This document shows, piece after piece, positions 15,018 through 15,828 of a stretch of 36,329 bases of DNA. Numbering within the stretch: position 1 is the first letter of the stretch; each line of letters opens with the position of its first letter. Origin of the DNA: a virus (taxonomy: Duplodnaviria > Heunggongvirae > Uroviricota > Caudoviricetes); the IMG/VR virus record IMGVR_UViG_2737471834_000007. One strand, given 5' to 3'. Made by a program: the position numbers and the translations under genes. The notes under the pieces were generated by a model that was given only the letters and a program-made list of their open reading frames with translations, did no database searches and had not been told where the DNA came from.

Positions 15018-15056
15018 GCTGATTAAGCCCGTCTGCAGGCTTAATCAGCTTTTTTC
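15018..15056 (+). terminator. Perfect 12-bp stem hairpin plus T6 (oriented for the + strand) between the endolysin and chaperone genes
   Basis: GCTGATTAAGCC-(8 nt)-GGCTTAATCAGC followed by TTTTTT. Confidence 0.45.
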
Positions 15057-15077
15057 ATGTCTTAATTACGTCTGATT

Positions 15078-15419
15078 TCAGCGCACGCCGTTATGTTCAA
15101 GGCTGAAATGATTGCCGTCAGGGCGGCTTCTGAAGCGTCCGCCCCATGTTCCACCCAGAGACTCCCAGTATTCGCCCAGCGGGCGATAGGCTTCTGTTGT
15201 GGACTGATATTCGCCATTAATAAACAGATTGAAATCCACGGCCAGTCGTTGACAGTGCAGACTGTTGATGATGCCGCTGCCTTTTGAAGCATTAAGTTTC
15301 GCCTGTTCTGGTGTGCGAAAGGCTTCTCCGAAGGTCAGGCCGTAACCCTGTTGTTCGGCAAACAGAATGAGTCTGCCAATCATGACAGTAAACAACTGTT
15401 GCTTTTCTGACAGTTTCAT
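15078..15419 (-). CDS. Endolysin, peptidase M15-like (113 aa from the ATG at 15419; alternative start at 15479)
   Basis: SLHCQRLAVD and DGNHFSLEH fit the zinc-binding motifs of M15 peptidases. The upstream part of the 214-aa track ORF has non-protein-like composition. Confidence 0.55.
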   Translation of the reverse strand: MKLSEKQQLFTVMIGRLILFAEQQGYGLTFGEAFRTPEQAKLNASKGSGIINSLHCQRLAVDFNLFINGEYQSTTEAYRPLGEYWESLGGTWGGRFRSRPDGNHFSLEHNGVR

Positions 15420-15537
15420 GGTCTGGTTTTCCCGTTCATGCTGTTGCGTAGCTTTTGTAGTGAGCGCAGCAGTTGCCATACCTTTACAGCGAACTGGCGC
15501 ATGCCGGAGAGTATGCCCGGCGATGCTTTTTTCCCGG

Positions 15538-15828
15538 TCACTTGTTCTTTCCTCCGTATTTTCTGCGCAGGTAACGCAGATAAATTTCAAAGACCTGGTA
15601 TCCGGCAATGCCCAGCGCAGAGCCGGCACCGGCAATGGCCAGTGGACTGGCGTCAGGAAACTGAACGAGGATTGCTGCCGCCGAGACGCCAAATGCGCCA
15701 CCCAGTAACGTTCTGCCGACAAACAGCCGTAGTGTCACGGGTTCCGCACTGGCGAGGACTTTCCCGGCTGCGGCAAGCGCGCCAAGGATCCCGAGAGTAA
15801 TCACTGTACGTTCATGTTCCTGGAGCAT
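15538..15828 (-). CDS. Holin-like membrane protein (96 aa)
   Basis: Three hydrophobic segments and a highly basic C-terminus (RYLRRKYGGKNK); sits directly after the tube gene and before the endolysin. Confidence 0.5.
   Translation of the reverse strand: MLQEHERTVITLGILGALAAAGKVLASAEPVTLRLFVGRTLLGGAFGVSAAAILVQFPDASPLAIAGAGSALGIAGYQVFEIYLRYLRRKYGGKNK

Follow-up and report, generated by a model that had tools for sequence, protein, structure and literature searches.

How phages of Gram-negative hosts breach the outer membrane when they lack a recognizable spanin is an open question, and it concerns the roughly 13% of them in which no spanin can be identified (PMC6139136). The question is raised here by the lysis cassette of a prophage contained in a stretch of DNA of 36,329 nt (IMG/VR record IMGVR_UViG_2737471834_000007; hereafter the window). 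A first, sequence-only reading of the window had pointed to a holin-like protein and an M15-type peptidase lying between the tail tube and tail chaperone genes, with unusual gaps of 118 and 93 nt on the two sides of the endolysin and no spanin-like genes. With virtual certainty, these genes are the lysis cassette of an Escherichia coli prophage of the HP1-like group (Peduoviridae). Neither the holin-endolysin cassette nor its position is novel; what is new is the loss of the spanins together with a conserved and apparently coupled gene for a small cationic peptide. This peptide may act as an outer-membrane disruptor, or disruptin; to the complete account, namely the cassette, the small gene and the disruptin role taken together, we give even chances.

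A small ORF between the holin and endolysin genes

The map of open reading frames (ORFs) and the family matches of their products gave the following layout, listed in the direction of reading. All the genes in the cassette region are on the minus strand.

16284..17477, minus strand: tail sheath (DUF2586, E = 1e-127)
15832..16287, minus strand: tail tube, 151 amino acids (aa) (PF10772 Phage_HP1_Orf24, E = 2e-48; PHROG 1182, tail protein)
15538..15828, minus strand: predicted holin, 96 aa (PF04550 and PHROG 175)
15416..15541, minus strand: small ORF, 41 aa (coding signature; fills the 118-nt gap at 15420..15537)
15078..15419, minus strand: predicted endolysin, 113 aa (Peptidase_M15_4 and PHROG endolysin families)
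14985..15077, minus strand: 93-nt spacer bearing a hairpin
15018..15049, minus strand: stem-loop within the 93-nt endolysin-chaperone spacer, terminator-like on both strands
14700..14984, minus strand: tail assembly chaperone, 94 aa (PF10963 Phage_TAC_10, E = 3e-26)
14509..14658, minus strand: DUF6890 ORF
12335..14506, minus strand: tape measure

The lysis genes therefore do lie between tail tube and tail chaperone, as the sequence-only reading had it, and sheath, tube, holin, endolysin, chaperone and tape measure follow each other in the order of an HP1-type late operon. The two gaps have exactly the lengths noted in that reading (118 nt at 15420..15537 and 93 nt at 14985..15077), but the first of them holds an ORF of 41 aa, MTGKKASPGILSGMRQFAVKVWQLLRSLQKLRNSMNGKTRP. 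The GTG start of this ORF overlaps the stop codon of the holin (GTGA), its TGA stop overlaps the ATG of the endolysin (ATGA), and a GGAGG ribosome-binding site is present 9 nt upstream of the GTG, within the last holin codons. Translation of the small ORF may consequently be coupled to that of both its neighbours, as judged from these overlaps.

Homologous loci were fetched with the endolysin as query and were split into two classes, A and B (see below), A comprising 118 loci from many Enterobacterales genera and B including the window. Every other class B locus has at the same site a counterpart ORF of 34-35 aa, MLSRREQKAAAIAWKIIRALWYWLRKPQQPHKEQK, which is preceded at 8 nt by GAGGAG and overlaps the endolysin start in ATGA as in the window. 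The sister prophages of E. coli and E. albertii have the 35-aa form.

Substitution patterns argue that these ORFs encode proteins. Between the window and its natural variant L167, there are eight synonymous and three non-synonymous changes in the small ORF, with a ratio of non-synonymous to synonymous substitution rates (dN/dS) of 0.11, to be compared with 3.2 and 3.1 in the other two frames. Pairs of E. coli-type sequences gave values of 0.13-0.39 in the ORF frame, in every pair below those of the other two frames. The replacements are conservative (K/R, V/L, S/A, I/V and R/H), and a 3-nt deletion in the variant L099 is in frame. The exact 41-aa product is encoded on 18 NCBI E. coli assembly contigs, where it is called hypothetical protein, and four conservative variants of it are known. 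Since the 118-nt gap shows no RNA-structure signal (z = -0.17 against shuffles) and no promoter motif, and carries instead this coding signature, it does not appear to be a regulatory spacer. A structured RNA in the gap was likewise discarded, given the same z value and no Rfam family match within 14400..16400.

Some observations speak for caution. The variable sites of the E. coli type show no excess at the third codon position (10 of 25, p = 0.30), and two variants stop early, at codons 28 and 34 of 35. The two types of peptide can hardly be aligned (p of about 0.02 against shuffled proteins) and blastn gives no match between their genes, although the score of their global DNA alignment is above those of all 2000 shuffles. 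On balance, it is highly probable, from the pattern of substitutions, that the small ORF is a real gene under purifying selection.

Among 5.8 billion proteins, the relatives of the 41-aa peptide were restricted to its own E. coli cluster, and the same held for a HMMER scan of 1.84 billion representatives, apart from weak matches to short stretches of proteins of 304-1,591 aa that were judged spurious. A tblastn search with both peptide types of 50,697 phage records returned nothing credible. The gap region (15400..15560) had no blastn match in 5,426 complete E. coli genomes, and the sister (35-aa) type was found in 41 complete genomes. Because the window type has no complete-genome match and its exact peptide is on 18 assembly contigs, its sub-lineage must be rare.

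Two architectures of the cassette

In class A (118 loci), the holin and endolysin genes share 4 or 14 nt, and the endolysin is followed by a stretch of 448-490 nt. This stretch encodes an inner-membrane spanin (i-spanin) with an N-terminal transmembrane (TM) segment in 116 loci and, overlapping it in another frame, an outer-membrane lipoprotein spanin (o-spanin) with a lipobox (e.g. ...FALLMITSGC...) in at least 107 loci by a strict pattern. The o-spanin ends a few nucleotides from the start of the chaperone match, with essentially no spacer. Class B comprises 24 loci, namely the window and an IMG/VR contig identical to it, one locus of E. albertii, a prophage beside serS in E. coli and a further 20 IMG/VR contigs. 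Here holin and endolysin are set apart by 106-118 nt, and the distance from endolysin to chaperone is only 73-95 nt, which leaves no room for spanins. Over the two classes, the peptide and the spanins never occur together in one locus.

The endolysins of close relatives are 72-87% identical to that of the window, and these relatives differ in having either spanins or the peptide gene. The tube protein is 83-87% identical within class B and at most 55% identical to that of class A. Class B is then a single clade, and the mutual exclusion of peptide and spanins corresponds to about one evolutionary event rather than 24, a point that tempers the argument developed below.

The statement of the sequence-only reading that no spanin-like genes are present was confirmed over the whole prophage. 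A six-frame lipobox scan of the window revealed no credible spanin ORF. With the i- and o-spanins of phages SI7 and ESSI-2 as tblastn queries, the best hit had an E value of 0.01 and was inside a tail-fibre gene. PHROG and Pfam scans of the remaining prophage ORFs gave no spanin match, and no spanin is annotated in the sister E. coli prophage. The only lipobox-like ORF on the same strand (9571..9717) is located within a tail-fibre gene, has a poor signal sequence and was judged spurious. Where an HP1-type cassette has one or more Rz-like spanin genes, between endolysin and chaperone, the window has only 93 nt and a hairpin. By comparison with its relatives, the lineage has lost the overlapped Rz/Rz1-type pair that they carry between endolysin and chaperone.

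A third architecture was seen in one locus, L032 (1037..1991), on a 2.8-kb metagenome-assembled contig labelled Bacillales with the order tube-holin-endolysin-chaperone: the holin overlaps the endolysin, and 48 A+T-rich nt precede the chaperone.

A candidate disruptin

The window peptide has a net charge of +9 with no acidic residue, and the sister type a net charge of +7. The peak hydrophobic moment is 0.61-0.62 over 18 residues (0.61 was reached by 69 of 2000 shuffles), and AlphaFold2, run on the single sequence, predicted one helix at residues 11-39 with a mean pLDDT of 74. There is no TM segment (the maximum Kyte-Doolittle mean over 19 residues is 0.62), no lipobox and no family match in Pfam or NCBIfam.

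A precedent is gp28, the disruptin of coliphage phiKT, a helical protein of 56 aa with a charge of +7 whose gene lies between those of endolysin and holin (Holt et al., bioRxiv 10.1101/515445). This protein can stand in for Rz and Rz1 in a lambda mutant defective in both, it associates with membranes, and in synthetic form it is lethal to cells (bioRxiv 10.1101/515445). The discoverers of gp28 screened for further candidates as proteins of less than 80 aa with a net charge of at least +4, encoded near the lysis genes of a spaninless genome. Both the 41-aa (+9) and the 35-aa (+7) peptides pass the size and charge limits of this screen; their genes are in the lysis cassette of a genome with no spanins, and the structure predicted for the 41-aa form is an amphipathic helix with neither TM segment nor signal sequence. 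Considering that the screen is passed, and that the peptide appears exactly where the spanins vanish, an outer-membrane role is proposed.

Several facts weigh against this proposal, besides the single origin of class B. Random ORFs of 30-60 aa in the window are often basic: 13 out of 229 reach +9, and in two out of 229 a charge of +7 or more coincides with a hydrophobic moment of 0.6 or more. The physicochemical resemblance to a disruptin is for this reason only suggestive. One relative, L032, has neither spanins nor peptide. Finally, BLASTP (E limit 10) found no alignment between gp28 and the peptide; disruptins are defined by function, however, and the absence of similarity argues against homology and not against a common mechanism. 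In our opinion, the peptide is probably related to lysis in some way. That it disrupts the outer membrane in a disruptin-like manner, by analogy with gp28, is a tentative proposal whose chances we rate slightly below even. The same reserve applies to the wider suggestion that the 41-aa and 35-aa peptides might constitute a second disruptin family, unrelated in sequence to gp28, which would have displaced the Rz/Rz1 pair in collinear temperate HP1-like phages.

If the disruptin reading is correct, lysis might proceed as follows. The cassette would be transcribed together with the sheath and tube genes, a position that is normal for the HP1-like group. The holin, with three TM segments, would build up in the inner membrane and then trigger, freeing the cytoplasmic M15 L-Ala-D-Glu peptidase to cut the peptidoglycan. 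The outer membrane would have to be disrupted with no spanin, the lineage having lost its Rz/Rz1-type pair, and in this last step the helical peptide (41 aa, +9) would bind and weaken the outer membrane, as do gp28 and cationic antimicrobial peptides. The ATGA overlap probably couples translation of the endolysin to that of the peptide, because the endolysin has no good ribosome-binding site in the window.

Alternative explanations

The peptide might instead be a lysis-timing factor acting at the holin or the inner membrane (an antiholin, a cofactor or a depolarizing trigger), in which case class B would have no dedicated outer-membrane step. Its gene comes directly after the holin gene and overlaps the holin stop, as would suit such a factor; small accessory lysis proteins working at the holin level exist, e.g. 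Lcc6 (65 aa) of Shewanella LambdaSo; and the holin has no dual-start motif, so that any antiholin must be a separate gene. Unlike Lcc6 and most antiholins, however, the peptide has no TM segment (maximum 19-residue mean 0.62). Moreover, its appearance coincides with the loss of the spanins and not with a change in holin architecture, and the gene is absent from the class A relatives that have homologous holins. We regard this explanation as unlikely.

Of similarly low probability is the view that class B is simply spanin-deficient and that nothing replaces the outer-membrane step, either because the cells are opened by shear or osmotic lysis or because the prophages are drifting towards a defective or tailocin-like state, the small ORF having an unrelated or minor role. 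Phages with no identifiable spanin are, after all, about 13% of those of Gram-negative hosts (PMC6139136), L032 has neither spanin nor peptide, and neither peptide type is present in any isolated phage among the 50,697 records. Against this view, the window prophage is complete and has intact ORFs, the dN/dS of the endolysin is 0.04-0.09, and the small ORF is under selection and has been kept in two diverged sub-lineages.

Less probable still is that the small ORF is a translational-coupling leader, which carries ribosomes from holin to endolysin and whose peptide product is irrelevant. The GTGA and ATGA overlaps at its ends and the weak Shine-Dalgarno sequence of the endolysin in the window are what one would expect of a leader, but dN/dS values of 0.11-0.39 and conservative replacements indicate a constraint on the amino acid sequence. 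Class A couples holin and endolysin by a mere 4- or 14-nt overlap, so that a 120-nt leader is unneeded; the E. coli-type variants have an AAGGAG site for the endolysin inside the ORF; and variants persist in which an earlier stop would abolish the coupling.

Lastly, a purely regulatory, non-coding role of the 118-nt and 93-nt stretches (as promoter or attenuator of the lysis genes) is very improbable in spite of the strong, conserved hairpin, terminator-like on both strands, because the former has a coding signature in place of a promoter site, an Ogr motif or unusual folding (z = -0.17), and because the hairpin lies downstream of the lysis genes, whose first member, the holin, starts 3 nt from the tube stop.

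The holin and the endolysin

The 96-aa protein matches PF04550 (Phage_holin_3_2) with an E value of 2e-31 and 108.7 bits against a cutoff of 25, over profile positions 1-84 of 86, as well as the PHROG 175 holin family (E = 1.4e-32). Three hydrophobic segments were located at residues 9-25, 35-51 and 60-76 by a simple Kyte-Doolittle scan, which is not a trained predictor, and the C-terminal tail is basic (RYLRRKYGGKNK). The three-TM holin-like protein of the sequence-only reading is therefore borne out, and we assign it as a predicted holin of the PF04550 family, which would form the lesion in the inner membrane. It is also similar to gp29, the holin of phiKT (BLASTP, E = 3e-11). When used as a query, the holin returned only the identical IMG/VR contig, with no match in metagenomes.

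In the locus of Photorhabdus namnaonensis (L044, 2212..2501), the holin match ends at residue 64, with 88 nt left before the endolysin. The locus is of class A in other respects, and its holin is probably truncated or frameshifted.

The 113-aa protein matches Peptidase_M15_4 (E = 6.7e-11, 43 bits versus a cutoff of 25) and the PHROG endolysin families. In an alignment of 14 endolysin homologues with identities down to 53%, H55, D62 and H104 are invariant, and these putative zinc ligands fit the H-x6-D...H pattern. A search of solved structures with the single sequence found no match, and a family profile was needed: the profile of the 14 homologues matched the L-alanyl-D-glutamate peptidase Ply500 (2VO9, E = 5e-5) and, in addition, 8Q2G (E = 6e-4), LysB4 (6AKV, E = 6e-3) and, at E = 0.35, Serratia ChiX (5OPZ). 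Taken together, the family match, the zinc ligands and the profile match to Ply500 uphold the earlier assignment to the M15 peptidases, and the protein can be described as a putative M15/LAS-type L-alanyl-D-glutamate endopeptidase, a cleavage specificity predicted from its relatives. It has neither a signal nor a signal-anchor-release (SAR) sequence, and its dN/dS of 0.04-0.09 indicates strong purifying selection. The start codon in the window is preceded by a weak Shine-Dalgarno sequence only, while in the E. coli type the small ORF contains a good site for it, AAGGAG. An N-terminally extended endolysin of 214 aa, starting from a TTG at 15722, was considered and rejected; the frame has stops in the E. 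coli-type relatives, and its dN/dS of 3.1-3.2 resembles that of non-coding sequence.

The hairpin and control of transcription

The 93-nt spacer after the endolysin folds with z = -4.2 against shuffles. Its stem-loop occurs once in the window and has no Rfam match; the stem has 14 bp (seven of them G-C pairs) as minus-strand RNA and 13 bp on the plus strand. The hairpin is conserved in both class B sub-lineages (nine sequences, 96% of cells paired), and two pairs show compensatory changes, from U-A to G-C and from A-U to U-A. The sequence-only reading had described a perfect 12-bp stem with a T6 tract just before the chaperone. The hairpin is real, and somewhat longer than thought, but T6 (15051..15056) belongs to the plus strand, which is antisense to the operon, and it is not conserved in the E. 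coli type. On the sense strand, the tail reads CAUCUUCUUCC in the window and CCUCUUAUUCUU in the E. coli type, being rich in pyrimidines and in U, and in a terminator test the sense tail CAUCUUCUUC passed the lenient rule only. The equivalent stretch of class A is G+C-rich coding sequence, which makes a comparison of stability between the two classes uninformative.

No sigma-70-like site was detected on the coding strand of the 118-nt gap region, and the Ogr-type late-promoter motif TGT-N12-ACA is absent within 14900..15900. The idea that the lysis genes have a separate promoter thus found no support; with the holin starting 3 nt from the tube stop and no promoter motif present, the lysis genes appear to be read with the tail genes. 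Attenuation had also been suggested. The terminator-like hairpin that it calls for exists and is conserved; however, lying after the lysis genes, it cannot attenuate these, but only the chaperone and the genes that follow. Attenuation at the hairpin is plausible but weak as a proposal. Most likely, the hairpin would be a leaky terminator or a 3' stabilizer, separating the abundant messages for sheath, tube and lysis proteins from those of the low-copy chaperone, tape-measure and baseplate genes and lowering the expression of the latter, but the inference is a weak one: the U tract on the sense strand is poor, and the stem is broken in the variant L167.

The locus of L167 (710..826) is a window-type variant with 93.7% overall identity, in which the 5' arm of the hairpin is altered to GCTGACCGGGCC, with the loss of four stem pairs. 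The chaperone ORF that gene callers predict there begins further upstream and has 118 aa.

Other features of the prophage

The complete prophage, of the P2/HP1-like kind, includes an integrase gene and, besides the late genes described above, those for a repressor, a Cox-like protein and a replication endonuclease, as well as structural genes for portal, terminase, scaffold, capsid, tail and baseplate and two tail-fibre modules.

34755..35801: integrase, part of the complete prophage gene set

The two tail-fibre modules are consecutive (5898..10189, minus strand). The first is composed of a fibre gene (8636..10189) and a fibre-assembly gene (8097..8657), the second of a fibre gene (6509..8077) and an ORF of 203 aa (5898..6509) matching tail-fibre PHROGs. 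The presence of two modules suggests two receptor specificities.

The chaperone gene ends with GTA AAA AAA TAA, i.e. with a run of seven A at 14703..14709 (minus strand), and the DUF6890 ORF is open in the -1 frame from this run (KKIKARLGAINRNDLTRMMALRRHW..., region 14509..14711). A programmed -1 frameshift is usual in tail chaperones, e.g. E/E' of P2 and G/GT of lambda. The run of seven A looks like such a site, and the DUF6890 ORF would then be a frameshifted extension of the chaperone and not a gene of its own.

At the far end of the prophage there is a gene for a YafO-family type II toxin (728..1108, minus strand; Pfam E = 1e-27), abutted and preceded by an ORF of 212 aa (1108..1746, minus strand) with a signal-peptide-like N-terminus and no family match; the two could be a toxin-antitoxin or cargo module. 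Another ORF of 41 aa, in the early region (32320..32445, minus strand), contains one strongly hydrophobic segment (MNIFISWLILIISVLCAIGIVRIV..., Kyte-Doolittle mean 2.9) and has no family match.

Comparison with known systems

Whether spaninless phages have disruptins is still an open question, and disruptins are not yet systematically predictable (PMC12819732, 2026); in the literature consulted, the only one characterized is the archetype gp28, with a near-identical copy in a close relative. The present locus offers a clean comparative case, in which similar endolysins are accompanied by either spanins or the peptide gene, and since the host is E. coli, the lambda Rz/Rz1 complementation assay applies directly. 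The two diverged natural versions of the peptide could be used for structure-function work. If the disruptin reading is true, a single cationic helical peptide would have taken over from a membrane-fusion machine of two components, with cassette, endolysin and host genus staying the same. A small cationic ORF coupled inside a holin-endolysin pair, with the spanins lost, might then serve as a signature of disruptins, and short outer-membrane-active peptides of possible antimicrobial interest would be added to those known.

The likeness to phiKT consists in the absence of spanins, in a small cationic, predicted-helical gene product encoded between holin and endolysin, and in homologous holins. 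Size and charge are comparable (+7 in 56 aa for gp28, +9 in 41 aa for the window type and +7 in 35 aa for the sister type). The order of the genes, in contrast, is reversed (gp27 endolysin, gp28 disruptin, gp29 holin), and the gp27 endolysin and the M15 peptidase of the window are of different types, with no similarity found between them. In addition, phiKT is a virulent podophage of the Autographiviridae, whereas the window is a temperate myovirus prophage; and the function of gp28 has been demonstrated in phiKT, while that of the window peptide is predicted by analogy.

As for the endolysin, the comparison with the catalytic domain of Ply500, from Listeria phage A500, is based on the match of the family profile and on the shared pattern of zinc ligands. 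The window protein would be a bare catalytic domain of 113 aa with no cell-wall-binding domain, and its likeness to the Ply500 group is remote.

P2 belongs to the same family, Peduoviridae, and its capsid, terminase, Ogr/Cox-type regulator and baseplate modules are of the same kind as those of the window. In P2, the lysis genes (Y holin, K endolysin and lysA-C) are located between head-completion and tail-completion genes and include the Rz/Rz1-like lysB/lysC; the window differs in having its cassette in the HP1 position and no spanins.

In the late operon of Haemophilus phage HP1, sheath (orf23), tube (orf24), hol, lys, an Rz-like spanin (orf25), orf26 and orf27 follow each other, with the lysis genes between tube and chaperone as in the window. 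Salmonella phage SI7 (Irrigatiovirus) and Cronobacter phage ESSI-2 (Seongnamvirus) have their lysis genes in the same position between tube and chaperone, and Yersinia phage vB_YenM_324 is a further enterobacterial relative of the HP1 late operon. Because HP1, SI7, ESSI-2 and about 118 related loci share this order, the placement of the lysis genes in the tail operon, which the sequence-only reading had stressed, is ordinary for this group of phages. The HP1 group and the window have in common the families HP1_Orf24 (tube), DUF2586 (sheath) and Phage_TAC_10, and between the window endolysin and its counterparts in SI7 and ESSI-2 the identity is 78-83%. The HP1-group phages have a holin gene overlapping that of the endolysin and an overlapped i-/o-spanin pair after it, both of which are missing from the window; the window in turn has the additional 41-aa gene between holin and endolysin, and a hairpin at the site of the spanins.

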